Below, piece after piece: positions 17,617 through 35,781 of a stretch of DNA of 35,781 bases. The stretch lies in the sequence record DRR723986_2438, one strand, 5' to 3'. A program made the position numbers and the translations under genes. Positions within the stretch are counted from its first letter, which is position 1. Each line of letters starts with the position of its first letter. The notes under the pieces were generated by a model. That model made no database searches. It was not told the origin of the DNA and worked only from the letters and a program-made list of their open reading frames with translations.

Positions 17617-17660
17617 ATGACAGTTATCATAGTTATTATTAACTTTCTATAGTATTTTAC
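17617..17660 (+). promoter_or_regulatory. FNR-like box + -7 element (usp 17680)
   Basis: aTGAcagttaTCAt (TGA at 17618), 23 nt, TATTTTAC (17653-17660). Confidence 0.75.
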
Positions 17661-17679
17661 GTAGATAAATGTTACTTAT

Positions 17680-18513
17680 ATGAAAAATATTCTTCTACTT
17701 ACAGAATTTTCAGATAACTCAATAAATGCTATACACTATGCCTTAAAATTGTTTAGTGGTGATTCTTGTAATTTCTTTGTATTGCATGTAGAGACAGCTA
17801 ACGCTTATTTAAGTGATGACTTAATGGCTGCAGGAAATCAAAGTATTTATGATTCGTTAGTTAAAAAACCTAAAGACAAATTAGCACACCTTACAACTCA
17901 ACTGAAACGAAAAGCAGAACAAGAAGACTTTAATATTGAAATGCTGATTGATCACGATGGTTTTATTGATGCCATTAAACAAGTAACTAAGGCCAAAGAA
18001 ATTGAACTCATTGTTATGGGTACTAATGGTGTCACCGGAGCTAAAGAGGTTGTGTTTGGAAGTAACACTATTAATGTGATACGAAAAGTTGATTGTCCAA
18101 CTCTTGTTATACCCGAAGCTTTTGAATATCAAAATCCGGAGCAAATATTATTACCTCTAGATTTTCAAGACGCTTTAGATAGTGATGCATTCCATAATGT
18201 ATTAGATTATGTAAAAAACTTTGGCAAAAAACTTCATCTTGTTAGGATTAACTCAGATATAGAGGATTCTAAAGAATCCCAAAAGGATGAAACACAAATA
18301 AATATATCCTTAGATAATTTAGACCATGAATATCATATGGTTAACAATATACCAATGCCTCATGTAGTAGACTCTTATGTACAAATTAATAACATAGATT
18401 TAATAACACTATTAGTACAAAGAGAAAGTCTATTTGAGCGATTTTTTATTGGCTCAACAACCTCTAAAATTAGTAATAAACTAAGAGTTCCACTACTCGT
18501 CTTTCACTCCTAA
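17680..18513 (+). CDS. Universal stress protein (tandem USP domains)
   Basis: MKNILLLTEFSDNS, MGTNG-x9-GSNT, CPTLVIP. Confidence 0.93.
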   Translation: MKNILLLTEFSDNSINAIHYALKLFSGDSCNFFVLHVETANAYLSDDLMAAGNQSIYDSLVKKPKDKLAHLTTQLKRKAEQEDFNIEMLIDHDGFIDAIKQVTKAKEIELIVMGTNGVTGAKEVVFGSNTINVIRKVDCPTLVIPEAFEYQNPEQILLPLDFQDALDSDAFHNVLDYVKNFGKKLHLVRINSDIEDSKESQKDETQINISLDNLDHEYHMVNNIPMPHVVDSYVQINNIDLITLLVQRESLFERFFIGSTTSKISNKLRVPLLVFHS

Positions 18514-18608
18514 ATTTATAGGATTCTAAAAAAATAGAACTCAAAAGCGAGCGGAATAGAAATTGGTAACTAAACATTGATACTGTTTTTTAAACAAATA
18601 ATCATAAT

Positions 18609-19271
18609 TTAGTCAAGTTCTTCTTCAATAGGCTCTAGTGCCTTAATATTTAATAAGTGTTGTTCTTCTAATACCGCGATAATTAACGTCACATAATCCC
18701 TTACCGTGGATTCTATAGATTGAGGGTCTACAATATCTACATAGCTTTTCCACAACAACTCTCTATCTTTTGTAGGACAAATACAGTACATACTCGTTTC
18801 AGCATGATATACCTTATATTCTTCATAATACTCTGGATTGTAAAACACATCCTGGTAACGAAGGTAATCTTCTTTAAATCTAACGAATGTCTCATCATAC
18901 ACATCAAAGTTTTTAGTGTATGCGATTTTGTCTTCAATACCAATAACCTTAGAAAACATAACCGTATCAAACCCGTCATTAATCAGGTCTTTTTCCAATT
19001 TCAACAAATCATCCTCCGTTAACTTTTCGGTTTTAAATGAAGGTTTAAAATAGGCAATACTCGTATGTACCTCAGCACCTCTCATCTCTAATTGCTCTTT
19101 CAGCTTATCTTCATATTTTTGTCTCGCTGCAATATTTGATGTTAACCCAACAACTAAAATTTTGGATGGTGCATAGGTATCTATGTCTGGGTTTTTCCAT
19201 TGATTGATAAGCTTTGTAGATGCACAACTTACCAGTAAAAAAGCCAGTAATAATGCAAATGTGTATTTCAT
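18609..19271 (-). CDS. Hypothetical lipoprotein
   Basis: LLVSC lipobox; 220 aa ORF co-oriented with upstream genes. Confidence 0.8.
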   Translation of the reverse strand: MKYTFALLLAFLLVSCASTKLINQWKNPDIDTYAPSKILVVGLTSNIAARQKYEDKLKEQLEMRGAEVHTSIAYFKPSFKTEKLTEDDLLKLEKDLINDGFDTVMFSKVIGIEDKIAYTKNFDVYDETFVRFKEDYLRYQDVFYNPEYYEEYKVYHAETSMYCICPTKDRELLWKSYVDIVDPQSIESTVRDYVTLIIAVLEEQHLLNIKALEPIEEELD

Positions 19272-19281
19272 GGTATTGTAG

Positions 19282-19731
19282 CTATTCCTTGCTTATGAGG
19301 TGTTTTTGTTTGCTCTCTTTCATTACAACTTTTATTAAATCGAAAAGTTTCATTTTTAGTGTTTGGTTTCGTTTCTTAAACTCACTTATAAGCTCTATTA
19401 AATTTCGATGTTCATTTCTATAGGCTGTTTCTTCCTCAATTTCATCAATGCCATCTAGCATAATTGTTAATTCTCTTTCGTGCGATTTTACAGCATTAAT
19501 CAAAGTCTGTGTTTGCTTTACAATTTTTGTTAGCTTTTCAATTAATTTTTTACTGACTTCAAAATGCTTATTATCTAGGATTTGAAGTGTATAAGATCTA
19601 ATTAGGTCTTCAAAAAATAGTTGTTCTTCTTTACAAAATTCTAATTCGGATAACCATTTTTTAGACTCATAGTGCATTTCATCTGCACTTAACCATTCGG
19701 TATGCTTTGCGTTAGTATGTATTGTTTTCAT
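19282..19731 (-). CDS. Hypothetical alpha-helical protein
   Basis: 149 aa, charged helical pattern, W.SELEF..EE..FF motif, several His/Glu. Confidence 0.8.
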   Translation of the reverse strand: MKTIHTNAKHTEWLSADEMHYESKKWLSELEFCKEEQLFFEDLIRSYTLQILDNKHFEVSKKLIEKLTKIVKQTQTLINAVKSHERELTIMLDGIDEIEEETAYRNEHRNLIELISEFKKRNQTLKMKLFDLIKVVMKESKQKHLISKE

Positions 19732-19743
19732 GGTAATAAATTT

Positions 19744-19784
19744 AAAAAAGCAGAGTACATACCTTTAACCATGCACTCTGCTTT
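19744..19784 (-). terminator. Intrinsic terminator downstream of hsp20
   Basis: Minus strand AAAGCAGAGTGCAT-10nt-ATGTACTCTGCTTTTTT; the mismatch is a G-U pair only on the minus strand. Confidence 0.8.
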
Positions 19785-19798
19785 GATTAATTGAATTT

Positions 19799-20251
19799 TT
19801 ACATCACCTCAATTACTTTTTTAGGCTGTTCTTTTGCTTCTTCTTTTTTAAGAAGATTTAACTTAAGAATACCATTTTTGTAGGTTGCTTTAACTTCCTG
19901 ATCTGTGTTTACCGTTTTAGGTAATGCTAATGATCTTTTAAATGAATTGTAACTGAACTCTTTACGTGTGTAATCTTCCTCTTTTTCTTCAAGTTCTTGT
20001 TTTTTCTCACCACAAACATTAAGAATATTATCATCTATGGTTACTTCAAAATCTTTTTTAGAAAAACCAGGAGCTGCAAATTCAATTTCAAAATCATTCT
20101 CATGTTCTTTAACATTCATCGCAGGCATTAAGCTATCTTCTTCAAAAAAGTCATTGTTAAAAAAATCGTCGCTGCTTAAAAAACTTTTTAAGCTGTCATT
20201 TGTCCATGATGGAAACAAACGTTTTCTGTTGTTAAATTTAATTAGTGACAT
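19799..20251 (-). CDS. Hsp20/alpha-crystallin small heat shock protein
   Basis: PAMNVKE, APGFSKKDF, EFSYNSFKRSLALP, ATYKNGILKL. Confidence 0.96.
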   Translation of the reverse strand: MSLIKFNNRKRLFPSWTNDSLKSFLSSDDFFNNDFFEEDSLMPAMNVKEHENDFEIEFAAPGFSKKDFEVTIDDNILNVCGEKKQELEEKEEDYTRKEFSYNSFKRSLALPKTVNTDQEVKATYKNGILKLNLLKKEEAKEQPKKVIEVM

Positions 20252-20292
20252 TGTTTTAAATTTTTGTTGTTAAACTTCATTGTTCAATATCC

Positions 20293-20336
20293 CTAATTTA
20301 CTGACAGTGTGTGTATTTTGAAATGATATTAATCAG
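20293..20336 (-). promoter_or_regulatory. FNR-like box + -7 element (hsp20)
   Basis: cTGAttaataTCAt (20335-20324), 23 nt, TAAATTAG (20300-20293). Confidence 0.8.
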
Positions 20337-20357
20337 TTTAGCAATTGCATTATACTT

Positions 20358-21731
20358 TTAAATCACTAATTTATCAACATCCGTTAGCTTCGGAATTTTT
20401 ACATGCCAACCATAGGTATCCTTAATCTTTACTCTAAAAGCATCTAAGGCTATAGGCTCACCGTGAATTAAATAGACCGTCTCTGGTATATTCTTAATAT
20501 TTGACATCCAATTGAGTAAATCTTCTTGATCGGCATGTGCCGATAAACTTTCAATATTCTTAATAGTAGCTTTAACGGGATAGTATTTACCAAAAAACCG
20601 TATTTCGTGTGCTCCCTCTTGCAATAGCCTACCTCTTGTTCCTTCAGCTTGATAACCAACTAACAAAACCGTAGTTGAAGGTTCATCAATAAGTTGCTTT
20701 AAGTATGTGAGGACGCGTCCACCTGTAACCATACCGCTACCTGCAATCACAATTTTAGAGCGTTTATCATCTATGGTTTCCCATGTTTCTCTATAGGATT
20801 CTACAATATTAACGTGATCACACATGGCATAATACTCTTCTGTAGATAATTTGTGCCATTTGGGAAATCGTTTAAAAACTTCTAAAACATTGTGGCCCAT
20901 TGGGCTATCTATAAAAATTGGAATGTCAGGAATTTTACGTTTTTTATAGAGCTGCCAAAGGATATACATTAATGTTTGCAAGCGCTCTACAGCAAAACTT
21001 GGTATAATTAAATTACCTCTTTTATGAATGGTTTCATTTATAATTTCAGTTAACACCTCTTCTACATCTTCATCTGGGTGCAACTTATTACCATAAGTAC
21101 TTTCTACAAATAAAAAATCTGCCCATTCTGGTGTTTTGGGATCATTTAGTAGATAATCATTTCGTCTACCTATATCTCCAGAAAAAACAAGTCTCTTACC
21201 GTTTATATCTAGTTCAATAAAAGTTGCTCCAATAATATGACCATTATACTGAAATCTATAAGATATATGATCAGACAAATGCACCCATTTACCTTCAATT
21301 TCTGCATGAAATAGTTTAATGGTATCTTCAGCTTCTTTTATAGTATAAAAAGGTAATGCAAGCTTGTGCCTGGTGTATTTTTCTCTATTAGCTTTTTCTG
21401 CTTCTTCCTCGTGTATTTTAGCACTATCATTAAGAATAATCTTGGCAATAGCCAATGTAGGTGAAGTTCCTATAATTTTTCCCCTAAAACCTTGTTTAAA
21501 TAGCCTTGGTAAATAGCCTACATGATCTAAATGACCATGTGTTAAAAGCACCACATCTATTGCTTTTACATCTATAGGAAGATTGACCCAATTTAGTTCT
21601 CGCAGCTCTTTAAGACCTTGAAACATACCGCAATCAATAAGTATATTCTTCTCGGATGTTTCAATTAAAAATTTTGAACCTGTGACAACACCAGACGCTC
21701 CTAAAAAATTGACTTTTATAAAATTATCCAT
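20358..21731 (-). CDS. MBL-fold beta-CASP ribonuclease
   Basis: LIDCGMFQG, THGHLDH, GHIIG, FSGDIG, VESTYG, SAHAD. Confidence 0.93.
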   Translation of the reverse strand: MDNFIKVNFLGASGVVTGSKFLIETSEKNILIDCGMFQGLKELRELNWVNLPIDVKAIDVVLLTHGHLDHVGYLPRLFKQGFRGKIIGTSPTLAIAKIILNDSAKIHEEEAEKANREKYTRHKLALPFYTIKEAEDTIKLFHAEIEGKWVHLSDHISYRFQYNGHIIGATFIELDINGKRLVFSGDIGRRNDYLLNDPKTPEWADFLFVESTYGNKLHPDEDVEEVLTEIINETIHKRGNLIIPSFAVERLQTLMYILWQLYKKRKIPDIPIFIDSPMGHNVLEVFKRFPKWHKLSTEEYYAMCDHVNIVESYRETWETIDDKRSKIVIAGSGMVTGGRVLTYLKQLIDEPSTTVLLVGYQAEGTRGRLLQEGAHEIRFFGKYYPVKATIKNIESLSAHADQEDLLNWMSNIKNIPETVYLIHGEPIALDAFRVKIKDTYGWHVKIPKLTDVDKLVI

Positions 21732-21733
21732 GA

Positions 21734-22585
21734 CTAATGATTTTGTATAGCACAGAGTTGTGATATTTCTTTTAATATCTTTTCTTTTCTTACTTCTGAG
21801 ACTCCTAAATGGTCTAAATAGAATTTATCATGTATCAATTCTCGGCATAGCACTACATTTCTACTTAATAAAAACTGCTTTTCTCTTGCTGTAAGAAGTG
21901 TAGAGACAGTTATTGGATATAAACCAAGTCGGTCTATTCTATCCTTTAAAGCATTGTTTTCTGGATAATCCCAGCTAAGCAAATAAAGGCCGCAACAATT
22001 ACTGTATTGTATAGCATCTTCGGTAAATCTTGTATTAGTAACAACCCATCCTTGAATTAACGATGTTCCATTTTTAGGATTTGTATTCCAATATGCTTTT
22101 ACATCTTCGTAACGAGAATTAATATATAATGGCACTTTAACATTACAATTGATGCCCTGCTCACCATGAAATTTACACTCAACTATTGTAGTTTCTTCAT
22201 CTTTGTGTGCCACGACGTCAATTTCGTGAGTGACACACTTACCTTGTAATACAGACCCTATACTTACCTTGTAGCCTGAATATTTTAAAATAGCACCTAC
22301 GAAGCGTTCAAAAGGAAAACCAGTTGGTCCCAGCTCATAAATAGCCTTCTTTAGTTTATACTTTGAGGCAAAGTAACTCTTCTTTTTTTTAAGCAAAGCA
22401 AATGCCCTATTATAAATTTCTTTTGTTGTAATACCTTGATAGAGCTCATCTCTTACCTTGTCAATAATTTGATCTACAGTCTGTTTATCTGCACCAGTGC
22501 GTTTTAATGATGCTCGTAGCTTGGTAAGTGAAAATTTAACGCGTTCACCTGATGATTTTGTAATATCAAAATTTTCATTTTCCAT
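21734..22585 (-). CDS. ATP-cone domain + Mrr-like PD-(D/E)xK nuclease-fold protein
   Basis: ITKSSGERVKFS..KL..SL (ATP cone); GFPFERFV, EIDVVA...VECKFH, VVTNTRFT; ATG start at 22585. Confidence 0.85.
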   Translation of the reverse strand: MENENFDITKSSGERVKFSLTKLRASLKRTGADKQTVDQIIDKVRDELYQGITTKEIYNRAFALLKKKKSYFASKYKLKKAIYELGPTGFPFERFVGAILKYSGYKVSIGSVLQGKCVTHEIDVVAHKDEETTIVECKFHGEQGINCNVKVPLYINSRYEDVKAYWNTNPKNGTSLIQGWVVTNTRFTEDAIQYSNCCGLYLLSWDYPENNALKDRIDRLGLYPITVSTLLTAREKQFLLSRNVVLCRELIHDKFYLDHLGVSEVRKEKILKEISQLCAIQNH

Positions 22586-22598
22586 AACTCTTGATTTT

Positions 22599-22635
22599 AA
22601 AAAAACTGCCAAAACAAAATTTATTCTGGCAGTTT
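22599..22635 (-). terminator. Intrinsic terminator-like hairpin inside the operon
   Basis: Minus strand AAACTGCCAGAAT...GTTTTGGCAGTTTTTTT with G-U pairs and a U tract. Confidence 0.7.
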
Positions 22636-22664
22636 CAAACTAACTAATAAAAATTGTTGAAGAA

Positions 22665-23072
22665 TTAACTCAACTTAAAGTAATCTCTCACCCAAGCTTT
22701 TATTTGATTATCTGTCATGCTATCAGCTTTAACCACGTCTTTAACCTTGGATGCGAGTGCTCCGTAATTGGATTTTAGTTCTTTATTAAACTTTTGATTT
22801 GTGCTTGCTGGTCCAAAAATCACCAATGCATCTGTATCATTTATTTTATCTGCTACGTCTTTAAAATATTGCTTAAGTTGATGTTTTTCACGCTCCAGAT
22901 ATTTACTGTCTTTTATAACATCTTGTGGTCCACTTTTAAACCGTTGGCCAGATCCGCCTTTAGCCTTGTAATACTTCATATCAGATGTTATAGTTAAAAA
23001 TTCTTCAACACCATTATCTATATGGATTATATGTGCTTTGTCTTTGTCTATCCAGACTCCTGTATATTTCAT
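22665..23072 (-). CDS. Small protein resembling a stand-alone baeRF/aeRF1-like (host-attachment-like) domain
   Basis: GVWIDKDKAHII beta strand, Gly-rich loop, YFKDVADKI helix, LVIFGPA motif; fold assignment is by eye. Confidence 0.6.
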   Translation of the reverse strand: MKYTGVWIDKDKAHIIHIDNGVEEFLTITSDMKYYKAKGGSGQRFKSGPQDVIKDSKYLEREKHQLKQYFKDVADKINDTDALVIFGPASTNQKFNKELKSNYGALASKVKDVVKADSMTDNQIKAWVRDYFKLS

Positions 23073-23084
23073 GATGATATATTT

Positions 23085-23939
23085 TTAGTTTCTTAAATCG
23101 TGCATTGCTAAAATTGGAACATTTAAATGAAATGAAATTTCCTTCACCAATGGGCTCGTAAGAATGCTACCAAAAAACGTATGTTTTCTATTAATAAAAG
23201 CTACCATATCACTGTCTCTACTTTCAACAAAAAGGTTTACCGCAGTTATCACTGAGTTATTAGAAAGTGTGTGGAATTTATATTTGGTGTCTTGTAAAAT
23301 TTCTTCCAAAAGCTCTTTACTCTCTTTTTGGTTATCGTCTAATTGTTCTTGTTCTTTTACATATAGTACAATTATATCAGCATCACTTTTTTTAGCAATA
23401 TCAGTAAGATAAATTAGCTCTCTTCTTTTGTAGTAGGTTTTAAATCCTGTAGGAAAAACAATCTCCTTTGGTAATTTTAATTCTGCTTTTTGTGGCACCA
23501 CAATTACTGGACAGTTACGTACTTTTTCCATGACATAAATTGCTGTACTACCAAAAGCCGTTGATCTTGAGTAAGTTTCGCCTTTGGTGCCCATAATTAT
23601 CATTTCAATATCTTTTTTATCTACTACAAGCTTAATGGCATCTATGGTATTATTGAACATTGAGATGGTCTTAAATTGATGTTTGGCATCACTTTTTTCT
23701 CTTAATATAAGTTTCTCTAAAACCTTAGCAAGTCCATTTTCTGAATCCCATTTTTTGGTTTCATACAGTTCACTACCAGGTTCTAAATTCATTAAACTTT
23801 CCATAACCTTGCCTGTAACAGAAAACACGTTTAGTATATAAAAATCAGTGGCCTGATCTTTATATAATTCTGTGGCATAATTAATGGCATGCCAAGCATT
23901 ATCTGAAAAATCTGTAGGTAATAAAACTTTATGTCTCAT
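23085..23939 (-). CDS. Universal stress protein
   Basis: VLLPTDFSDNA, MGTKG-x9-GST, CPVIVVP. Confidence 0.93.
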   Translation of the reverse strand: MRHKVLLPTDFSDNAWHAINYATELYKDQATDFYILNVFSVTGKVMESLMNLEPGSELYETKKWDSENGLAKVLEKLILREKSDAKHQFKTISMFNNTIDAIKLVVDKKDIEMIIMGTKGETYSRSTAFGSTAIYVMEKVRNCPVIVVPQKAELKLPKEIVFPTGFKTYYKRRELIYLTDIAKKSDADIIVLYVKEQEQLDDNQKESKELLEEILQDTKYKFHTLSNNSVITAVNLFVESRDSDMVAFINRKHTFFGSILTSPLVKEISFHLNVPILAMHDLRN

Positions 23940-23969
23940 GATATTAGATTTTAATATTATTTAGGTTAA

Positions 23970-24806
23970 CTACTCCTCTATTGATGGAATAACAAAAAAT
24001 GGCACGGTTGCATGAAAGCCTAATTTCTTAATGACAGGTTCACTTATAATACTTTCCATGAAACTGTGCTCATAATTAATCATAACCAAAATATTAATAT
24101 GAAGCTCATTAATAAAATCAATGATAGCACTTGATTTGTTGGTATAATCTGGCATCCAATGAAATGTGTGCGGATAATTCTCTAGGTACGTTTTTAGCAT
24201 CGCCAAATTATAGTTTTGTATATGACTCAAGTTTTTTTCTTCATTAATATGTAGCACTCTTATCTTTGAATTGTATAAGTTCGCTAATTCTTTCAGGGGC
24301 AACAATTCTTCACCATAAAACCTATTAAAATCTGTAGGGAAAGCAATTTGCTTAGGCTCTTCATATTCGTATTCATTAGGAATTAAGAGAATTGGGCAAG
24401 TTTTAATATGTTTAATAATTTTCACCGTATTACTACCAAAAAATATTTCTTTTGCTCCGGTAGCACCTTTGGTACCCATTACAATAAAATCAATATTATG
24501 CCTATTGATGGCTCTCTCAATGGCCTCATCCATGGCATTGACACTTAAAATAATATCAAACTCATGATTTGCATTGGCATCTGCTGTTTCTGCCATTTGT
24601 TTAAGTTCTATAAGCTCATTTTTAGCCTGATCTACCATAATATTCAATAATTTGTTTGAAAAATTAGACATTGTAGAAGCCTTCATTTTTGTAGAGTGTA
24701 GAAAATAGAAATTACATTCCTCATCGGCGTAAAGCTTTAAGGCATATACTGCTGCGCACCACGCATTGTCAGAAAAATCCGTTGGTATTAGTATATTTTT
24801 TCTCAT
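23970..24806 (-). CDS. Universal stress protein
   Basis: ILIPTDFSDNA, MGTKG-x9-GSNT, CPILLIP. Confidence 0.93.
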   Translation of the reverse strand: MRKNILIPTDFSDNAWCAAVYALKLYADEECNFYFLHSTKMKASTMSNFSNKLLNIMVDQAKNELIELKQMAETADANANHEFDIILSVNAMDEAIERAINRHNIDFIVMGTKGATGAKEIFFGSNTVKIIKHIKTCPILLIPNEYEYEEPKQIAFPTDFNRFYGEELLPLKELANLYNSKIRVLHINEEKNLSHIQNYNLAMLKTYLENYPHTFHWMPDYTNKSSAIIDFINELHINILVMINYEHSFMESIISEPVIKKLGFHATVPFFVIPSIEE

Positions 24807-24829
24807 GGCTAAAATCTTTAATTATAGTA

Positions 24830-24873
24830 GAAATTTAAGACTAACATTTAGCGTATGAAATGATATTAATCAG
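24830..24873 (-). promoter_or_regulatory. FNR-like box + -7 element (usp 24806 operon)
   Basis: cTGAttaataTCAt (24872-24861), 23 nt, TAAATTTC (24837-24830). Confidence 0.8.
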
Positions 24874-24877
24874 TGTA

Positions 24878-25723
24878 CTACTTTAGTTTTGAAGGAATTA
24901 CCAAGAACGGAACATTTAGGTTAAAACCTATTTGTCGGATGGTTGATTTAAAGAATAAGTTTTCAAAAAATGAATGTTTATTGTTAATCATCACCAATAA
25001 ATTAATACGTGCTTTCATTTGAAATTGGGTAATCGCCTCGGGAATATTTTGATTCTTAACTTTGTGAAACAAGTGTGCTATTGTTTTAAAATAGTTTTCA
25101 AGTTTACCTTTATTATCTTTTTGTTTTTCAGACAAACCTTCTCCATAATACACATGTAAAATATTAACACGAATATTATACAAATTTGCAATATCTATGA
25201 TAGGTTGCACGTGCTGGTCTTTAAATTCTACCTCGTAATCCGAAGGAAATAACAACTCATGTGGAGTTTCAAAATTAAAATCACTTGGAACTGCAATTAC
25301 AGGACATTTGGCTTTATTAAGCACATGTACGGTATTAGAACCAAATAGTACTTCCTTTACTCCAGATGCGCCTTTTGCACCCATGATAATAAGATCCATG
25401 GAGTTGCCATCGTACAAGTCATTAATCTCAGCTGTTAGTGTGTTAAATGAAGATATTTTAGCAAAGACGTGGTTAGAATTAGGAAACTCTGATTCTATGC
25501 GTTCCACTAAATCATTTAATTTTTTCTTTGAAGTTTCTTTAACAGCTTCCATAACCTGAAGTTGTGGAGAACTGGCTTGCATATACTCAAACTGATATAT
25601 GATAGGAGTATACGTGTTTAACAGTGTAAATGTACATTTCTCATTCTTAAACAACTGTAATCCATATTTTATAGCATTCCAGGAATTATCAGAAAAATCC
25701 GTTGGTAATAATACTCTTTTCAT
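24878..25723 (-). CDS. Universal stress protein
   Basis: VLLPTDFSDNS, MGAKG-x9-GSNT, CPVIAVP. Confidence 0.93.
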   Translation of the reverse strand: MKRVLLPTDFSDNSWNAIKYGLQLFKNEKCTFTLLNTYTPIIYQFEYMQASSPQLQVMEAVKETSKKKLNDLVERIESEFPNSNHVFAKISSFNTLTAEINDLYDGNSMDLIIMGAKGASGVKEVLFGSNTVHVLNKAKCPVIAVPSDFNFETPHELLFPSDYEVEFKDQHVQPIIDIANLYNIRVNILHVYYGEGLSEKQKDNKGKLENYFKTIAHLFHKVKNQNIPEAITQFQMKARINLLVMINNKHSFFENLFFKSTIRQIGFNLNVPFLVIPSKLK

Positions 25724-25734
25724 AGTCGTTAATT

Positions 25735-26592: not shown

Positions 26593-26614
26593 GACATTGT
26601 ATTTTCTATTGTTT

Positions 26615-26658
26615 TAAAAATACATCTCAATTATCAGTTAAACTATGATAAATATCAG
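26615..26658 (-). promoter_or_regulatory. FNR-like box + -7 element (usp 26592)
   Basis: cTGAtatttaTCAt (26657-26646), 23 nt, TATTTTTA (26622-26615). Confidence 0.8.
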
Positions 26659-26700
26659 ATGCCGCGATATTTAGAATTAAATTCAGCAAGTTTTTTAGAT

Positions 26701-26734
26701 AAAAAAAGAAGCCAAACTAGCGTTTGGCTTCTTT
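26701..26734 (-). terminator. Intrinsic terminator
   Basis: Perfect 13-bp stem AAAGAAGCCAAAC-gcta-GTTTGGCTTCTTT running into T7 on the minus strand. Confidence 0.88.
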
Positions 26735-26793
26735 CAAAAATTAACTGCAAAACTAATAGAAAACCCCCATTTTCAAATAGTCATACTAAATGC
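26701..26793 (-). ncRNA. Candidate small RNA (~93 nt; 5' end estimated)
   Basis: Own FNR-like box and perfect TACATTTG -7 upstream, strong terminator downstream, only 3- and 5-codon ATG ORFs between. Confidence 0.6.
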
Positions 26794-26798
26794 TAACT

Positions 26799-26842
26799 CA
26801 AATGTATGTAGACATTCACATTTTTAAAATGATATTTATCAT
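26799..26842 (-). promoter_or_regulatory. FNR-like box + -7 element (candidate sRNA)
   Basis: aTGAtaaataTCAt (26841-26830), 23 nt, TACATTTG (26806-26799). Confidence 0.8.
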
Positions 26843-26856
26843 TTTCACTGAGATTC

Positions 26857-27243
26857 TTACATTAAAACTATACCATAAGCCATATTTAGTAAGTATATAC
26901 CTATAAAAAATAATAGCATATAAATCACCTGTACCAGCTTAACATTAACCACCTCTAACCAATTAACCGTGCGCGTTGGTAACACAAATAGGGCTAAACC
27001 AATAAATAAGGAGAACCAACCAATTAAAGTTATAATGAGTTTATAATTGAGTTCCCAGATATTATGAAACAATACATTTAACAACCCAATACTAATGGCT
27101 ATAAATGCAGAAATGATTAAGAATTTTTCATCTTTTAAATCATTAAAAATCTGTTTTATTCGCTTTGGGTTTAGACTAAGAATTAAGAAAAAGATAATGA
27201 GATACCAGCCCCAAAACTTGGCTAAAAAAATTGAATTATCCAT
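26857..27243 (-). CDS. Small 4-TM membrane protein of unknown function
   Basis: 128 aa hydrophobic ORF with HNIW motif; overlaps the usp stop by 8 nt (translational coupling). Confidence 0.8.
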   Translation of the reverse strand: MDNSIFLAKFWGWYLIIFFLILSLNPKRIKQIFNDLKDEKFLIISAFIAISIGLLNVLFHNIWELNYKLIITLIGWFSLFIGLALFVLPTRTVNWLEVVNVKLVQVIYMLLFFIGIYLLNMAYGIVLM

Positions 27244-28096: not shown

Positions 28097-28117
28097 CGAA
28101 CAACTTCTTTAAAGTAA

Positions 28118-28161
28118 CAAATTTATTGGTATCATTACAATTTGAAAATGATATCGGTCAC
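28118..28161 (-). promoter_or_regulatory. FNR-like box + -7 element (usp 28096)
   Basis: gTGAccgataTCAt (28160-28149), 23 nt, TAAATTTG (28125-28118). Confidence 0.8.
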
Positions 28162-28182
28162 TTTGAGCTTGTTAACATTCAT

Positions 28183-29232
28183 TTAGTCCATTTGTTTCAA
28201 TCTTTCTAAATCCATAACCTTAATATTTCTACCATCAGACTTTATGATGCCTTCTTTTTTAAATGTTGTGAGCGCTCTAATTAAAGTTTCTGTGGCTATC
28301 CCTGCAACACTAGCTAAATCGCTTCGATATATTTTTATAGGATCTTCTGGTTTTCGGTTTATTTTTTCGGCAAATTTTAAAATAGTTGCTGCGGTTTTCT
28401 TATTGACGGAACCATAAGCCATCTCTAACAACTGATTTTTAATACCTAATAAGTCATCAGACAACAACTGAATCAGTTCCATAGCAACTTTGTGATTTTG
28501 GTCTAAAATTCTATTGAACTCAATTGTAGAAAGACCAAGCAATTCAACATCTTCAATCGCTGTAGCCGTTTCTTTGTGTGGTTGATTATTTGTAAAAGAC
28601 GTATACCCAAAAAGGTCATCCTCTTTGTAAAGTGCCGTGACTAATTCTTTACCTTGCTCGTCGATTTTATAGCATTTTACAGCACCCTTATTTATTAAAT
28701 AAATATAATTTGAATGATCACCTTCTCTATAAATTACCTGATCTTTATCATAATTTAATTCAACGCCATTATCATCGAAGAAATTTTTTAAATCATTTAG
28801 AGTACGTAGTTCATTATGGTCTGTTTTACTTAAACTAGCAACACCTCTATATTCTTTTAAAATTGATGCTTTTGCAAGACGACTTTCTATAGCGCTGATT
28901 AATTCATCTTCTGTAAAAGGCTTCGTAATGTAATCATCGGCTCCTAAATCCATTCCTTTTCTTACATCCCTATGCTCAGTCTTTGCCGATAAAAATATAA
29001 ATGGAATGTATTTTGTACTCGAGTTTTTAGATAACACTTTAAGGGTTTCATAGCCATCTACTTCTGGCATCATGATATCACAGACAATAATATCTGGCAT
29101 ACTCTTTTTAGCTAAAGGTATACCTGTTTTTCCATTGGATGCTGTAATTACACGATAGCCCGAGATTTCAAGAAGTTCGGCTGTATTCTCTCTTAAAACT
29201 ATATCATCTTCTATAAGTAATATCGTTGTCAT
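28183..29232 (-). CDS. Response regulator: REC + cNMP-binding-like + Crp/Fnr HTH
   Basis: LLIEDD, IVCDIMMP, DYITKPF (REC); IYREGD..IYLINKGAVK (cNMP fold); RSDLASVAGIATETLIRAL (HTH_Crp). Confidence 0.93.
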   Translation of the reverse strand: MTTILLIEDDIVLRENTAELLEISGYRVITASNGKTGIPLAKKSMPDIIVCDIMMPEVDGYETLKVLSKNSSTKYIPFIFLSAKTEHRDVRKGMDLGADDYITKPFTEDELISAIESRLAKASILKEYRGVASLSKTDHNELRTLNDLKNFFDDNGVELNYDKDQVIYREGDHSNYIYLINKGAVKCYKIDEQGKELVTALYKEDDLFGYTSFTNNQPHKETATAIEDVELLGLSTIEFNRILDQNHKVAMELIQLLSDDLLGIKNQLLEMAYGSVNKKTAATILKFAEKINRKPEDPIKIYRSDLASVAGIATETLIRALTTFKKEGIIKSDGRNIKVMDLERLKQMD

Positions 29233-31109
29233 TGCTTCGCTGTATTTGGAATTGTTATAGTAAAGGTTGTCCCTTGATTTTCTATACTCTCAAAAGAAAT
29301 TGTACCACCCAAGTTTTCTAAATGGTATTTCGCAATATTTAGTCCTATACCTGTACCTTGCGTATTTATAGCATTTTCGGCTCTAAAGTAACGTTCAAAA
29401 ATACTTTTCTGATCATGGATTGGTATACCTATACCATTATCTTTTACGGCAAGGGTTGTGGCTTGTTTTGCTGAGCGCACATCAATGTCAATAATGGCAT
29501 ACTCCGGCGAATACTTAATCGCATTATTCACTAAATTAGTTAAGATTAAACCCAATACTTTTTCATCTTGATATAAAGAAATATCATCCATATTATCTGG
29601 ATAATTTATCTTTTGACCTTCCTTTAATACCATATTGGCATTGTATAGTACTTCGTCGAGTACTTTACTCAGTTTAAAATTACTGTAGGTATAATTTAAA
29701 TCTCCCGATTCGAGTTTTTCAAGCGATAGAAAATCATTTAAAATATTATTTAGATAATATACCTTATCTGAAATAGTTTTAATATGCTTATCTCGCTTTA
29801 TCTGATCCTCTGTAAACTTGTATTTACTCAATAGTACAGAGGAGGTTAAGATACCACTTAATGGTGTTTTAAATTCATGAGACACTAGAGATAAAAATTT
29901 AGTTTTAAGTTCATTGAGGTCTTTTTCTTTAGACAAGGCTACCTTTAACTGCGTTGTGCGCTCTTCAACCTTTTTCTCTAATTTTTCCGTATAATTTTTA
30001 CGTTCAGTAATATCTAAAATAATAGCAACAAATACATCTTTTTCATCTAAACTAGAAAGTTGTAAATGCACCTCTACAGGGTAAGAGGAACCATCTTTAC
30101 GCACGTGTGAGGACTCAAATTCAATTTTTTCAACATTTTGCTTTAATAGAGTGTCTAAAATATTTCTAAAATGTACTTCGTTTTCTTTAGGTTTAACATC
30201 AAGAGGGGTCATTTTCTTTAACTCTAGTAGGCTATATCCTATATTTTTCTGTGCACCATAGTTCACATTAATAAAATTTAAGGTTTGGGCATCAAACACA
30301 TAGATTTCATTTAAAGATTCATGGAAAATAGTGGCTAGATGGTTACGCTCTGCCTCGGCCTTTTTTCTTTTAGTAACATCATTTTGTATCCCAATAAAGT
30401 GGGTTATAATACCTTTTTCATTAATAATTGGCATAATGTATAAGTCATTCCAAAACAGTGAGCCATCTTTCTTATAATTGCGTAAAGTGACTTGGCAACT
30501 TTCGCCTTTTTTTATCGCTTCTCTTAGCACCTCAAGAGGTTTCTGGTCTCTGTCTTTGCCTTGTAGAAATCTACAATTATGGTTAAGAATTTCTTTTTTG
30601 GAATAGCCCGTTAGACGCTGAAAAGCAGCATTAAAATATATGATAGGATTATCTGGCTTCAAAGCATCTGTAATAATAATACCATTACTGGCGGACTGAA
30701 GCGCACTACTCTTGAGCATTGAATTTTTCTCGTTTTCCTTTAACTGAGAAATATCTTTGACTAGTGCCATCACGTAAGTCTTATTATAGATAGAGAATGG
30801 GTTTAATTCTACTTCTATATCAATAACATCACCTGTTTTTTTAAGTCCATAAATATCTGAGGCTTCACCCATACTTCGTTTTCGTCGCTCTTTAGAGAAA
30901 TCCTCAAAATATTTGGTGTGATTTTTTCTATAGTGTTGAGGAATAAGAATACTGAGATCTTTATGAAGCAATTCTGTTTTATTATAACCAAATATATGTT
31001 CAGCAATAGAGTTTACCTCCATAATCTGCTGATGGTCATCAACAATAATTACACCTTCAGAAATAGATTCTAATAGTATATTAAATATTTCTTGATCCTG
31101 TTGAAGCAT
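29229..31109 (-). CDS. Sensor histidine kinase with PAS (FixL-like), LOV and PAS domains
   Basis: PAS1 LSILIPQHYRKNH; LOV NHNCRFLQ; PAS3; HisKA SHEFKTPL; HATPase NAIKYS, DNGIGI, GTGIGL. Confidence 0.93.
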   Translation of the reverse strand: MLQQDQEIFNILLESISEGVIIVDDHQQIMEVNSIAEHIFGYNKTELLHKDLSILIPQHYRKNHTKYFEDFSKERRKRSMGEASDIYGLKKTGDVIDIEVELNPFSIYNKTYVMALVKDISQLKENEKNSMLKSSALQSASNGIIITDALKPDNPIIYFNAAFQRLTGYSKKEILNHNCRFLQGKDRDQKPLEVLREAIKKGESCQVTLRNYKKDGSLFWNDLYIMPIINEKGIITHFIGIQNDVTKRKKAEAERNHLATIFHESLNEIYVFDAQTLNFINVNYGAQKNIGYSLLELKKMTPLDVKPKENEVHFRNILDTLLKQNVEKIEFESSHVRKDGSSYPVEVHLQLSSLDEKDVFVAIILDITERKNYTEKLEKKVEERTTQLKVALSKEKDLNELKTKFLSLVSHEFKTPLSGILTSSVLLSKYKFTEDQIKRDKHIKTISDKVYYLNNILNDFLSLEKLESGDLNYTYSNFKLSKVLDEVLYNANMVLKEGQKINYPDNMDDISLYQDEKVLGLILTNLVNNAIKYSPEYAIIDIDVRSAKQATTLAVKDNGIGIPIHDQKSIFERYFRAENAINTQGTGIGLNIAKYHLENLGGTISFESIENQGTTFTITIPNTAKQ

Positions 31110-31172
31110 TGCTAATTAATTGTAATTACAGTAGTCAAATAGACCTTTAAATTATGAGTAGTTTATTAGCTT

Positions 31173-31246
31173 TAAAGGTACAATAATTCTGTGGTTATTT
31201 TTCTGATTTATGTCATAAATTAAGATTGAAATTCCTTGTATTTTTA
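31173..31246. promoter_or_regulatory. Bidirectional promoter with one central FNR-like box
   Basis: TGAtttatgTCA (31204-31215); TACCTTTA on minus (31180-31173) and TATTTTTA on plus (31239-31246), each 23 nt from the box. Confidence 0.78.
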
Positions 31247-31264
31247 AGGCTAAATGTATCTGTT

Positions 31265-31675
31265 TTGAATAGTCATATACCATCACGAATTCAATTCTAC
31301 CAAAACCTTGGTAAACTTTTCTATGCCTTTGCTGCTATAGATAATGAAGTGAGAAAAGAAGAATTAAAGAAGCTGATACAAATTGTAAACACAAAATGGA
31401 TAATTGTAAAGGATTTTGACAAAACTGCCAGTAATGCTATTATTAACACCTTTAAATGGTTATATAATGATAATGAATACAATGCAGAATTATGTTACAA
31501 GAGTTTTTTACAATATTTAGATAAAAATAGATCTCTTTTTAATGAAAACATTAATTCTTTAATTATTAAAACAGCTACTGAAATAACCGCAAGTTTCTCG
31601 GGTCAGAATAAATCTGAAGTGATTTTACTTGCAAAACTTAGTTTAGAACTAAAAAAACACAATGATGAAACATAG
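31265..31675 (+). CDS. Hypothetical protein, TerB-like helical fold
   Basis: LFYAFAAIDNEVRKEE motif; start uncertain, TTG 31265 chosen because TTG 31226 lies upstream of the -7 element. Confidence 0.65.
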   Translation: MNSHIPSRIQFYQNLGKLFYAFAAIDNEVRKEELKKLIQIVNTKWIIVKDFDKTASNAIINTFKWLYNDNEYNAELCYKSFLQYLDKNRSLFNENINSLIIKTATEITASFSGQNKSEVILLAKLSLELKKHNDET

Positions 31676-31961
31676 TTTTAATTCCATAATTAATTCAGAA
31701 ACACCTGTCTTGGTTGACTTTTTTGCCGATTGGTGTGGTCCATGTAAAATGTTAGCTCCTATACTAAAACAGGTGAAAGATGAGCTAGGTGAATCGGTGA
31801 AAATTGTGAAGATTGACGTTGATAAAAATCAACAACTAGCTGCAAAATATCAAGTCAGAGGTGTCCCTACAATGCTCTTATTTAAAAATGGCAAACAAGT
31901 CTGGAGACAATCTGGAGTATTACAAAAAAATGATATTATAAATGTTATTCAATCAAATTGA
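31662..31961 (+). CDS. trxA: Thioredoxin
   Basis: VDFFADWCGPCK, VRGVPT. Confidence 0.95.
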   Translation: MMKHSFNSIINSETPVLVDFFADWCGPCKMLAPILKQVKDELGESVKIVKIDVDKNQQLAAKYQVRGVPTMLLFKNGKQVWRQSGVLQKNDIINVIQSN

Positions 31962-32010
31962 TTAGGGTAAATTAACCCCTATATCAATACCAGAAATTAT
32001 TTACCCAGGT

Positions 32011-32054
32011 CTGACCAATATCATTTCAAGGGAATATTAGCTATACTACTTTTG
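32011..32054 (+). promoter_or_regulatory. FNR-like box + -7 element (WG-repeat/ABC exporter operon)
   Basis: cTGAccaataTCAt (32012-32023), 23 nt, TACTTTTG (32047-32054). Confidence 0.8.
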
Positions 32055-32081
32055 ATGCAATAATCCATAAATGATAATAGC

Positions 32082-32702
32082 ATGAAAAGAGTCATAGTTT
32101 TAATATTAGTTATTGCGATACTACCTTTTTACAGTTACGCACAGAATATAGACGACATTGATTATATCTCCCCATTCTATGATGGTGTGGCTGCAATTAA
32201 AAAAGATAATCAGTGGGCATTTATGAATAACAACGGAGATATTATGGTTGCCTTCAGAAATGATTTAGTTATAATAAAAACAGAAGACGGTAGTTATCCT
32301 ATTTTTTATAATGGTAGATGTCTAATAGAGGAACAAAAGGATGGTATCACCTACTTTGGGTATATAGATATTACAGGAACTACCATTATAAAACCAAGAT
32401 TTTTAAATGCCACCAATTTTAGTGATGGTAAAGCATTAGCCTTAGAGTTAATTAAGCAAGAAGTCGGTAAAAATGATGCTCTAGATAAAAACATTGTGTA
32501 TTACAACTATGTTGAAGTTGTTATTGACACCAGCGGTGAAATTAAAAACTATATTAATCCTAAAGGTACAAATGTAGTTTTAGACAAAAAGTTTTTAAGA
32601 AAACCACCAAAAATTTTATCTAGACGAATTTCAGATCATCTTGTAGCAAGAAAAGATAAAAATGGCAAATGGTACATTATAAAATTAAATCATACTGAAT
32701 GA
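32082..32702 (+). CDS. Secreted WG-repeat-like protein
   Basis: Signal peptide; FYDGVAAIK...WAFMNNNG and FGYIDITG..IIKPRF..ATNFSDG repeats. Confidence 0.8.
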   Translation: MKRVIVLILVIAILPFYSYAQNIDDIDYISPFYDGVAAIKKDNQWAFMNNNGDIMVAFRNDLVIIKTEDGSYPIFYNGRCLIEEQKDGITYFGYIDITGTTIIKPRFLNATNFSDGKALALELIKQEVGKNDALDKNIVYYNYVEVVIDTSGEIKNYINPKGTNVVLDKKFLRKPPKILSRRISDHLVARKDKNGKWYIIKLNHTE

Positions 32703-33778
32703 AGAGACTCCTAACATTCTTAATTGGTCTTTTACTTTTAACTTGCTCAGACAACACAAATAAAATCTTACCTGTAGAGCGCAGCTTAACGGAGTCTGTT
32801 TATTCCTCTGCAACTGTGCAACCCGATAGCTTATATCAAGTTTATGCCATAGTTGCAGGAATTATAGAGAACAATTTAGTTGAAGAAGGCTCATTGGTTT
32901 CAGAAGGGCAATCCTTAATTCAAATTATTAACAATACACCAGAATTAAACACTCAAAATGCCAAATATGCATTAGAGTTAGCGAAAGAAAATTACAATGG
33001 TAGTGCAACGATATTGGAAAGTATCGAAGACGAGATGGCATCAGCAAGATTAAAATATAAAAACGACTCTACTAACTACTTTAGACAACGTAATCTTTGG
33101 AAACAACAAATTGGCTCTAAAGCCGAATATGATACCAAAAAATTAAATTACGAGTTATCCCAAAATAATTTAAAACTATTAGAGAGTAAGTACAAAAGAA
33201 CCAAAAATGAACTACTTAAGGCAGTGAAGCAAGCACAAAACAATTATAAAACCTCGCTAATTACAACAAAGGATTATACGGTTAACAGCAAGATTAACGG
33301 TAAAGTATATGCGCTTTATAAAGAACCAGGCGAAATTGTTAATACCATGGAACCATTAGCCGCAATAGGAAGTAAACGCAATTTTATAATTGAATTATTA
33401 GTCGATGAAGTTGATATTGTTAAAATTAGTTTAGGTCAAGACGTACTGATTACTTTAGATGCCTATAAAAATCAAGTCTTTAAAGGAAAAACATCAATGA
33501 TATATCCTCAAAAAGATGAACGAAATCAAACCTTTTTAGTCGAGGCTGTTTTTGAAAAACCTCCAAATGTTTTGTATCCAGGATTATCTGGTGAAGCCAA
33601 TATTATTATTGCGAAAAAGGAACATGTATTAACCATTCCTAAATCTTATGTTATTGATGGTTCTATGGTTAAAACTGATGAAGGCTTAACACCTATTACT
33701 ACCGGACTCGAAAATATGGAATTTATCGAAGTCCTTTCGGGTATTAATAAAGACACCTACCTCTACAACCCTGAATAA
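32699..33778 (+). CDS. Efflux periplasmic adaptor subunit (MacA/HlyD-like), probable lipoprotein
   Basis: LLLTC lipobox-like, VEEG..V..GQ.L lipoyl motif, coiled coil, VDEVDI..I..GQ, LYPGLS. Confidence 0.88.
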   Translation: MKRLLTFLIGLLLLTCSDNTNKILPVERSLTESVYSSATVQPDSLYQVYAIVAGIIENNLVEEGSLVSEGQSLIQIINNTPELNTQNAKYALELAKENYNGSATILESIEDEMASARLKYKNDSTNYFRQRNLWKQQIGSKAEYDTKKLNYELSQNNLKLLESKYKRTKNELLKAVKQAQNNYKTSLITTKDYTVNSKINGKVYALYKEPGEIVNTMEPLAAIGSKRNFIIELLVDEVDIVKISLGQDVLITLDAYKNQVFKGKTSMIYPQKDERNQTFLVEAVFEKPPNVLYPGLSGEANIIIAKKEHVLTIPKSYVIDGSMVKTDEGLTPITTGLENMEFIEVLSGINKDTYLYNPE

Positions 33779-35040
33779 TGACCAATTGGAGCGTTATATT
33801 AAACATAGCCAAAACCCATTTGCTGACAAAAATTAAGCAAACCTCAATAGCTGCTTTAGGGGTAACTTTTGGGATTGGGTCTTACATTACATTGGTCTGT
33901 TTTATGACCGGTTTAAACGCCATGCTCGATGATTTAATATTAAATCAGACACCACACATCCATGTTTACAACGAAATTGCTCCATCAAAACAACAACCTA
34001 TATCACTAATAGACCAAATCGAAAACAGTTTTAACGTCGTACATTCTATTAAACCAAAACTCAGCCAGAAAAAAATTCATAATGCCTTACCGATTATCGA
34101 TTATTTAGAAGCTAACAATATTGTGCGAGGTGCCCTTCCTCAAATAAAAACTCAAATCTTCTATATCGCTGGTTCTATTGAAATAGGTGGCAATCTTACA
34201 GGTATTAATCCTGTTGACGAAGCTAAGCTCTTTAATATGAGCGACTATATCGTTGAAGGTTCTGCAGAGGCACTACAAAATACAGATAATGGAATACTAT
34301 TAGGTATCGGTATGGCAAAAAAAATGGCTCTAAATATTGGTGATCGGGTTCAGGTAAGTCCTATAAATGGGGGCATATTTTCATTAAAAATAGTCGGGTT
34401 TTATCAAAGTGGTATTGCAGATTTAGACGCTATTCAAAGTTTTGCCAACATTAAAACGGTTCAGCGTATTTTGGGCAAAGCCAATAATTATATCACCGAC
34501 ATTAATGTAAAATTATATGATATTGAACAAGCCGTAGCACTGGCAAAAAAGATAGAATCGCAATTTAATCTCACAGCCATTGATATTAAGGCCGCAAATG
34601 CACAGTTTGATACAGGAACAACCATTCGAAATCTCATTACCTATGCCGTTTCAATAACTTTGCTCATTGTAGCAGGTTTTGGCATTTACAATATTCTCAA
34701 TATGCTTATTTATGAAAAAATGAATGACATTGCCATATTAAAAGCTACTGGATTTTCTGGCAAGGACGTGCAACTCATTTTTATGAGCCAGGCTATGATT
34801 ATTGGTTTTGTTGGTGGTGTTTTAGGATTGCTGATTGGTTTTGGATTGGCCAGTTTAATTGATACGATTCCTTTTCAAACAGAAGCCTTACCAACTGTAG
34901 AAACGTATCCAATAAATATGAATCCCTTATTTTTTGTCATTGGGTTTACATTCGCCATGATTTCAACCTTTTTAGCAGGCTATTTACCCTCTAAAAAAGC
35001 AAAAAAGATAGATCCTGTAAAAATTATAAGAGGTCAGTAA
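33778..35040 (+). CDS. ABC transporter permease (MacB/LolC-E family)
   Basis: N-terminal TM, periplasmic domain, EKMNDIAILKATGFS, PSKKAKKIDPV. Confidence 0.92.
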   Translation: MTNWSVILNIAKTHLLTKIKQTSIAALGVTFGIGSYITLVCFMTGLNAMLDDLILNQTPHIHVYNEIAPSKQQPISLIDQIENSFNVVHSIKPKLSQKKIHNALPIIDYLEANNIVRGALPQIKTQIFYIAGSIEIGGNLTGINPVDEAKLFNMSDYIVEGSAEALQNTDNGILLGIGMAKKMALNIGDRVQVSPINGGIFSLKIVGFYQSGIADLDAIQSFANIKTVQRILGKANNYITDINVKLYDIEQAVALAKKIESQFNLTAIDIKAANAQFDTGTTIRNLITYAVSITLLIVAGFGIYNILNMLIYEKMNDIAILKATGFSGKDVQLIFMSQAMIIGFVGGVLGLLIGFGLASLIDTIPFQTEALPTVETYPINMNPLFFVIGFTFAMISTFLAGYLPSKKAKKIDPVKIIRGQ

Positions 35041-35041
35041 T

Positions 35042-35716
35042 ATGAGTATCGTTTTAGAAGCAAAACATATCAACAAATATTTTAAAAAACCTCTGCTTTT
35101 TCATGTGCTTAAAGACATCAACTTTAGCGTTAATCAAGGAGAATTTGCCTCTATTATGGGAAAATCTGGGTGCGGAAAGTCTACCCTACTCTATATTCTT
35201 TCGACAATGGATACCGATTATGAAGGGGAATTATATCTCAATAATCAACTTATATCGAGACAAGATAAACAGCATTTATCTTACCTGCGAAATAAGCATA
35301 TTGGCTTTGTCTTTCAGTTTCACTATTTATTGTCGGAGTTTACCGTTTTAGAAAATGTCATGCTTCCTGCTAAAAAACTAGCGGAGAAATCACTAAAAGA
35401 GATTGAACACGATGCCATGGACAAATTGAAAATGCTTCATATAGACCATTTAGCTAAAAAAAGAGCATCACAAGTTTCAGGAGGAGAAAAACAACGTGTA
35501 GCTATAGCTCGAGCTCTTATCAATAATCCTTCGATAATTATGGGAGATGAGCCAACTGGTAATTTAGATAGCCATAATGCCGAAAATGTATTCAATATCT
35601 TTAAACAGTTAAGTGACGATAAAGGATTATCCCTTCTGATAGTAACACATGATGAAGATTTCGCGAAAAAGACAGACAGAATCATACAGATGGAGGACGG
35701 CAGAATTCTTTTGTAA
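35042..35716 (+). CDS. ABC transporter ATP-binding protein (LolD/MacB-like)
   Basis: GKSGCGKST, GFVFQFHYLL, SGGEKQR, DEPTGNLD, VTHD. Confidence 0.95.
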   Translation: MSIVLEAKHINKYFKKPLLFHVLKDINFSVNQGEFASIMGKSGCGKSTLLYILSTMDTDYEGELYLNNQLISRQDKQHLSYLRNKHIGFVFQFHYLLSEFTVLENVMLPAKKLAEKSLKEIEHDAMDKLKMLHIDHLAKKRASQVSGGEKQRVAIARALINNPSIIMGDEPTGNLDSHNAENVFNIFKQLSDDKGLSLLIVTHDEDFAKKTDRIIQMEDGRILL

Positions 35717-35727
35717 GCATTCCTATA

Positions 35728-35771
35728 ATGATATAAATCATTTCTAATGACGCCTTTAAAGGCTAATTTTA
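35728..35771 (+). promoter_or_regulatory. FNR-like box + -7 element for the next gene beyond the window
   Basis: aTGAtataaaTCAt (35729-35740), 23 nt, TAATTTTA (35764-35771). Confidence 0.75.
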
Positions 35772-35781
35772 GACTATAATT

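Follow-up and report, generated by a model that had tools for sequence, protein, structure and literature searches.

Genes and boxes of the window

The window analysed here is the whole stretch of 35,781 nucleotides (32% GC) from sequence record DRR723986_2438 and belongs to a marine flavobacterium. Right of position 17547 it carries genes for six Usp proteins, Hsp20, a beta-CASP hydrolase, thioredoxin and an ABC exporter, which lie behind short palindromic boxes of the form TGA-N6-TCA, and genes for a histidine kinase and for a response regulator in which a receiver domain (REC) is fused to a Crp/Fnr module. A preliminary description of the sequence took the box as the operator of this resident fusion protein. 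We consider it likely that the box is a Bacteroidota FNR/FixK-type box marking a genome-wide low-oxygen regulon, and that it is read by the REC-Crp/Fnr fusion and also by a Fnr protein with a Cys cluster.

TGA-N6-TCA occurs 25 times in the window, and only nine of these matches are intergenic, at the positions that had been listed in the preliminary description (Table 1). The intergenic DNA right of 17547 (1240 nt) contains the nine boxes, compared with an average of 0.35 and never more than 4 in 2000 dinucleotide shuffles, and spacer lengths from 0 to 10 other than N6 gave no intergenic match there. Left of 17547 there is no box in 1222 intergenic nt, which agrees with the earlier statement that the intergenic regions of 1-17500 are free of it. 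The box pattern in the window is real, and the shuffles exclude chance.

A -7 element, TAnnTT, starting exactly 23 nt after TCA (N23) had been reported for all ten promoter orientations. It is present in 10/10 of the named ones, but an eleventh gene-facing orientation had been left out: the minus side of the 17618 box, toward a nitroreductase gene, has no TAnnTT at N23, and the fair count is therefore 10 of 11. At every other spacing from 10 to 35, TAnnTT was found in 0 or 1 of the ten named orientations, and the remaining 40 orientations have it at N23 once (34341, inside a coding sequence; Fisher p about 1e-9). Three octamers, those of 26830, 28149 and 32012, are perfect TAnnTTTG as described before. 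The 35729 box points to the window edge, so that its target gene lies outside, and the 26830 box points to a terminator hairpin ahead of any gene.

Spacing rule and consensus in related loci

The rule was followed in 80 Flavobacteriaceae loci (the best 80 of 576 confirmed). Intergenic boxes with the N6 spacer numbered 472, while other spacer lengths gave 24-61. The N23 rule, which the preliminary description had proposed to look for in relatives, was recovered there: TAnnTT stood at N23 in 372 of 492 assessable gene-facing strict boxes, with just 3 cases for N22 and 7 for N24. No peak at N40-65, where class I sites would lie, was seen in these loci. Homologous promoters keep box-N23 in 165/198 cases for usp, 15/16 for hsp20, 43/44 for the gene at 31226, 10/12 for the WG-repeat gene and 8/11 for thioredoxin, and 25 boxes in 20 loci are two-sided.

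The consensus is (A/C)TGAY-N4-RTCAT. Among 381 N23 sites, base -48 is C in 202 or A in 152 and base -35 is T in 362; TTGA..TCAA, with the outer bases of the Escherichia coli box, occurs in none of them, and the octamer is a perfect TAnnTTTG in no more than 149. Only 1% of the activated promoters have TTG at -33, and it is also not enriched in 140 box-free TAnnTTTG controls, which makes the -33 contrast uninformative.

Start sites and oxygen limitation in a relative

A published start-site map of Flavobacterium psychrophilum (PMC9723704) places TAnnTTTG at -12 to -5. With TA at -12 and N23, the box therefore occupies -47..-36 with its centre at -41.5, in line with the class II placement near -41/-42 proposed before. 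Searching this table by gene names and by 24 literal 12-mers gave ten rows with a box, twelve of the 12-mers having no row in it. Six of these promoters have N23, and the distance from box centre to mapped start is exactly -41.5 in four of them, -40.5 in one and -38.5 in one. Log2 changes from control to oxygen limitation were computed from the two replicates of this study. All six were induced in this relative, by +1.9 to +6.3: ccoI +5.2 (its -7 element begins with GA), ccoS +5.0, cytochrome c551 +3.8, a metallo-beta-lactamase +2.4, a peroxiredoxin +6.3 and a hypothetical gene +1.9 (PMC9723704). As background, that comparison shows about 526 of 4109 features going up or down, and the start sites of these box promoters were assigned to sigma-A by the study (PMC9723704). 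Where the box lies within the core promoter, at a Crp/Fnr gene divergent from ccoI and at a PAS gene, expression changed by -1.3 in both; one box row without TA at N23 showed +0.9, and a 5' end not assigned to sigma-A showed -0.7 (PMC9723704).

The annotation rows consulted in this table include no regulator of the size of the fusion (about 1050 bp) among 18 "response regulator" entries or three Crp/Fnr entries (627, 678 and 681 bp). By annotation, F. psychrophilum therefore uses the box without the fusion. From nothing but size and position, we infer that the 681-bp gene encodes the Cys-cluster Fnr. The words FNR and Crp do not occur in the main text of the study (PMC9723704).

A predicted genome-wide regulon

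Genome-wide counts were made in related genomes, with the reversed pattern as control. Five of them contain 18-54 sites of box-N23-TAnnTT, compared with 1-8 for the control. In one of the five, G001, the first genes downstream encode HemN, pyruvate:ferredoxin oxidoreductase (PFOR), 2-oxoacid oxidoreductase, PflB, Pta, PPDK, PckA, methylmalonyl-CoA epimerase and HPF, all of them above NCBIfam cut-offs. The protein at L096:10561-10746, which had no family match, we take to be CcoS. A few sites inside coding sequences are probably background. The window had been presented as a whole regulon, a view that does not hold with 18-54 sites per genome in relatives and with most G001 sites lying off the island. 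Judged by these predicted targets, the regulon is a genome-wide anaerobiosis regulon and the window is its stress-protein island.

Resident regulator, kinase and the Cys-type Fnr

In the resident regulator both PF00027 and PF13545 are above cut-off and E..R is present in the recognition helix, which places it in the Crp/Fnr superfamily. The best solved relative of its Crp part is FNR (E 4e-16; helix ETLIR vs ETISR). It has the phospho-site motif DIMM and the recognition helix ATETLIR, and GIATE[ST]LIR is found in 67/80 REC-Crp proteins of the related loci. The hallmark of Fe-S FNR, an N-terminal Cys cluster plus a central Cys, is absent from the REC-Crp protein of the window. Second or third REC-Crp paralogues (41-53% identity) were seen in G004 (L113), G045, G055, G056, G193 and others, and G004 also has a further Cys-rich Crp/Fnr protein with helix GTTEEQVIR.

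A histidine kinase adjoins the regulator in 77/80 related loci, and 72 of those 77 have the His motif. The first PAS domain of the kinase matched DosP and FixL best, and it has a His aligned with that of DosP, which we take to be the heme ligand. The kinase would thus bind heme and sense oxygen. Between the heme-type PAS and the third PAS lies a LOV domain that contains NCRFLQ, the motif of the photoactive Cys (30354-30720, minus strand). Counted by the NCRFL motif, the LOV Cys is present in 8/77 related kinases, and the kinase may combine oxygen and blue light in some lineages.

The five related genomes counted above each encode a Crp/Fnr protein of about 226 aa with an N-terminal CxxC and the helix GTATESAIR. 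L109-L111 combine the CxxC with both a third and a central Cys, and L112 is without the third Cys. The cco/hem targets flank the gene of this Cys-type Fnr.

Proteins predicted to read the box

The occurrence of sites was compared with that of the two regulators in 201 Flavobacteriaceae genomes, where each regulator was searched with one query and absence means not found with that query. Genomes with both (n=57) had a median of 36 sites (control 3), and an excess of 8 or more was found in 57/57. The medians were 20.5 (control 2) in genomes with REC-Crp only (n=42; such excess in 42/42), 15.5 (control 3) in those with Fnr only (n=74; 51/74) and 4 (control 1.5) in those with neither (n=28; 2/28). 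The "neither" genomes are smaller, and the 12 of them with at least 2.6 Mb give 4 vs 4. The trend was the same in a phylum sample of 251 genomes, from which 8 common to the family sample were left out: the medians were 21.5 for both (n=4), 6.5 for REC-Crp only (n=24), 11 for Fnr only (n=28) and 2 for neither (n=187). From this co-occurrence either protein appears to be sufficient, with additive effects, and the box is probably shared by the two regulators.

The resident REC-Crp/Fnr is very likely a binder of the box because all 42 REC-only genomes show the excess. To this extent the preliminary description was right in naming it, but the box does not belong to it alone, as 51/74 Fnr-only genomes also show the excess. 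It is improbable that the box is a private operator of the resident fusion with the island as its regulon, even though the surroundings of the regulator are rich in boxes (472 in 80 loci), no REC-only genome lacks the excess, and homologues near the regulator carry the box, as counted above for usp and hsp20. Such an operator is difficult to combine with the median of 15.5 sites vs 3 in Fnr-only genomes, with the position of most G001 sites off the island, and with F. psychrophilum, which has induced box promoters and no fusion-sized regulator among the annotation rows covered (PMC9723704).

We regard as equally doubtful that the Cys-type Fnr alone, or else a third Crp/Fnr paralogue, acts on the boxes while the REC-Crp fusion binds elsewhere or represses. 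The cco/hem targets beside the Fnr gene speak for this, as do the usual overlap of box and kinase promoter in relatives, in a geometry that suits repression (N9-12 in 25/54), and the existence of other Crp paralogues, one with a related helix (L113); the 42 genomes with REC-Crp and no Fnr match have a median of 20.5 sites nonetheless, the counts add up to 36 when both regulators are present, and the helix ATE[ST]LIR is kept in 67/80 REC-Crp proteins. An already disfavoured reading, that box and N23 element form the bipartite promoter of an alternative sigma factor or arose by chance in AT-rich DNA, could lean on the rigid, sigma-like spacing and on the low GC of the window, but it is very improbable, given that the upstream element is palindromic and can serve both directions (the 25 two-sided boxes), that the box tracks with Crp/Fnr genes, that the shuffles exclude chance, and that in the start-site rows covered box promoters were assigned to sigma-A and repression was seen with the box inside the core promoter (PMC9723704).

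Several results weigh against a low-oxygen box shared by the REC-Crp/Fnr fusion and the Cys-cluster Fnr. TAnnTT at N23 is missing from 134/509 gene-facing boxes, 25 of which are one-base near misses. At 24 distant REC-Crp loci (L140-L163, about 1.5 kb flanks; no regulator reading frame found by the script in 2/24), N23 was not enriched, with 4/52 orientations at N23 vs 5 at N24. A strong excess is lacking in 23/74 Fnr-only genomes, and the "neither" genomes of the phylum sum to 520 sites vs 252 in the control; therefore diverged or other Crp/Fnr proteins may contribute. The co-occurrence counts ignore the relatedness of genomes, and for F. psychrophilum the rows were picked out with the literal 12-mers and by gene name and not by scanning the whole table (PMC9723704).

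Sequence supports the boxes, their spacing, conservation, targets and co-occurrence, and the published data of the relative support the start-site position and the induction at low oxygen. On this basis the following mechanism is proposed for the shared box. At low oxygen the Fe-S Fnr would become active, and the heme-PAS kinase next to the fusion, to judge from FixL, would probably phosphorylate the receiver and so switch the fusion. Bound to the box, which is centred at -41.5 and ends 23 nt ahead of the -7 element used by sigma-A, either Crp/Fnr dimer would recruit sigma-A polymerase by class II activation, presumably through contacts with sigma, to promoters whose -7 is weak and which lack a -33 TTG. 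Where the same site lies over the core of a divergent promoter, it would repress that promoter. The predicted readers, of which the Cys-cluster Fnr is encoded near hemN/cbb3 genes, would act through the same recognition helix, ATE-[ST]-x-IR.

Kinase side of the 31204 box

The kinase-facing side of the 31204 box is atypical, with G after TCA vs T in 362/381 N23 promoters of relatives, and its N23, counted before among the regular ones, is not conserved (2/54 relatives). The kinase-side spacing in relatives is N9-12 in 25/54 and N24-25 in 11/54. Positive autoregulation of the kinase operon was considered as a general rule and is ruled out by N23 in just 2/54.

In L006, L012, L013, L016, L019, L020, L025, L026, L029 and the L037-L077 group, the box ahead of the kinase gene has N23 for the divergent gene and overlaps a TAnnTT on the kinase side at N9-12. 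This arrangement suggests negative autoregulation of the kinase in relatives with the N9-12 box.

Candidate non-coding RNAs

Behind the 26830 box lies a candidate hypoxia-induced small RNA (Table 1). Its fold has a z of -5.2, largely from the terminator, and its body is nearly identical in the closest relative (L068:12392-12537), where the promoter spacer has diverged. A Rfam scan of 17500-35781 yielded a single match, whose E of 0.91 points to chance, and none for the candidate RNA. In the contigs listed for RNA runs X1-X3 and for run X4, no piece covers the candidate as RNA.

The same locus in relatives has a box+N23 promoter, and then, about 12-17 nt past the -7 element, A(C/T)GTTC(T/C)TT, which we take to be boxA-like. 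It is followed by one to four non-coding units of about 180 nt, each closing with a conserved GAAACAGGAAG hairpin. The exact GAAACAGGAAG hairpin is present in 12/201 genomes, all carrying a REC-Crp gene, and the array is not in the window. The tandem hairpin-ended units possibly form a non-coding RNA array. A second motif, GCTATTAAT(CA), recurs right before the terminator hairpins of short box-driven transcripts.

Other features of the window

The feature coordinates are collected in Table 1. The gene listed at 31226-31675 (plus strand) has a TTG start that overlaps the predicted promoter, and its true start is probably an in-frame TTG near 31265. At 20358-22612 (minus strand) a beta-CASP metallo-hydrolase and an ATP-cone/Mrr-like protein are paired within the stress island. 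MBL homologues in relatives have their own box in 0/30 cases, and the upstream gap is absent in 28.

Table 1. Coordinates of promoters, genes and RNA candidates (window positions unless a related locus is named).
Feature	Position	Strand	Details
usp promoter	17618..17660	+	box 17618-17629, N23, -7 element 17653-17660; usp gene 17680-18513
hsp20 promoter	20293..20335	-	box 20324-20335, N23, -7 element 20293-20300; hsp20 19799-20251
usp promoter	24830..24872	-	box 24861-24872, N23, -7 element; usp 23970-24806; from short gaps, probably also serves the following genes (usp, hypothetical, ATP-cone/Mrr, beta-CASP)
usp promoter	26615..26657	-	box 26646-26657, N23, -7 element; usp 25735-26592; probably also serves usp 24878-25723
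Geneless promoter	26799..26841	-	box 26830-26841, N23, perfect TAnnTTTG; terminator next, no gene between
Candidate non-coding RNA, ~95 nt	26698..26794	-	behind 26830 box; ends in 13-bp hairpin and U run
Hairpin arms of candidate RNA	26705-26717 and 26722-26734	-	
usp promoter	28118..28160	-	box 28149-28160, N23, perfect TAnnTTTG; usp 27236-28096 and 128-aa gene
REC-cNMP-HTH_Crp response regulator	28183..29232	-	349 aa
Histidine kinase	29229..31109	-	626 aa; PAS, LOV, third PAS, HisKA, HATPase
Single box between divergent genes	31173..31246	both	box 31204-31215; N23 on plus and minus sides
31204 box, plus side		+	N23 promoter; hypothetical gene and thioredoxin
WG-repeat gene promoter	32012..32054	+	box 32012-32023, N23, perfect TAnnTTTG; probably also serves HlyD/MacB-type ABC exporter genes
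Edge promoter	35729..35771	+	box 35729-35740, N23, -7 element; target beyond window
Tandem-unit loci	L078:12575-13370, L008:12430-13050, L027:11560-11995, L011, L079, L169		
GCTATTAAT(CA) loci	L078:12487-12500, L032, L015, L008, L027, L079		

Comparison with known systems

In mycobacteria the heme sensor kinases DosS/DosT with DosR turn on many Usp proteins together with a small heat-shock protein, a ribosome hibernation factor and CBS proteins. DosR itself is of the LuxR type, and its site is unrelated. This dormancy regulon therefore resembles the flavobacterial one only in its targets.

The closest parallel in geometry is class II activation by E. coli FNR, for which 19/23 directly activated promoters are reported at -41.5 +/-4 in the part of the source used (PMC3688515). 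Both have a dyad with TGA-N6-TCA as its core and -41.5 as its centre, both go with activation at low oxygen and with repression where the site lies over the core promoter, and both have pflB and possibly a small RNA among their targets. The 23-nt spacing, which had been offered as a precise activator-promoter grammar, equals the known geometry and is no new grammar. Differences are the outer base, the helix ExxIR instead of ExxSR, and the Bacteroidota -7 element; the spacing to the -7 element here seems to vary less than the distance to E. coli start sites (+/-4), though the two measures are not the same.

In rhizobia, FnrN, an Fe-S sensor, and FixK, which is controlled by a heme kinase, bind almost identical sites and regulate both cco and hemN, according to the section consulted of PMC4999443. 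An Fe-S sensor and a Crp/Fnr protein under a heme kinase on one box are likewise predicted here. Unlike FixLJ-FixK, the receiver is fused to the Crp/Fnr module with no FixJ tier, some kinases (8/77) have a LOV domain, and the phylum and the box consensus are different. A separate FixJ tier was not found beside the kinase, where the REC-Crp/Fnr fusion stands in 77/80 loci, the rest of the genome not having been searched. HcpR2 of Bacteroides/Porphyromonas also belongs to the Crp/Fnr family, but it differs in its predicted motif, GTAAC-N4-GTTAC, in a regulon that mostly consists of nothing but hcp and in its signal, nitrosative stress, as given in the passages used (PMC1274295).

The box is not described in the portions covered of PMC3590769, PMC1274295, PMC13370916, PMC8510549 and bioRxiv 10.1101/172254. 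In the literature searched, with subscription papers and regulon databases outside reach, we found no description of the flavobacterial box or regulon, nor of any oxygen-response regulator or operator for flavobacteria. It is apparently a real, undescribed variant of a textbook mechanism, and the textbook class of the mechanism limits the surprise.

Meaning for flavobacteria

A wider picture is a tentative idea so far: one hypoxia regulon with three inputs, namely the Fe-S Fnr, the heme-PAS kinase acting through a one-step REC-Crp protein and, in some lineages, among them that of the window, blue light through LOV. Such a regulon would also drive undescribed non-coding RNAs, namely the RNA of ~95 nt in the window and, at the corresponding locus of relatives, a transcript made of the tandem ~180-nt units with their terminal hairpins. 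Flavobacteria count among the main degraders of polysaccharides on marine particles, and some are pathogens of fish. For these bacteria, a search for box-N23-TAnnTT is selective enough to yield the low-oxygen regulon of a genome with nothing but its sequence (median 36 vs 3 in the control where both regulators are present). The class II geometry carries over to the divergent sigma-A of Bacteroidota, and the system offers a direct test of two oxygen sensors sharing one regulon.

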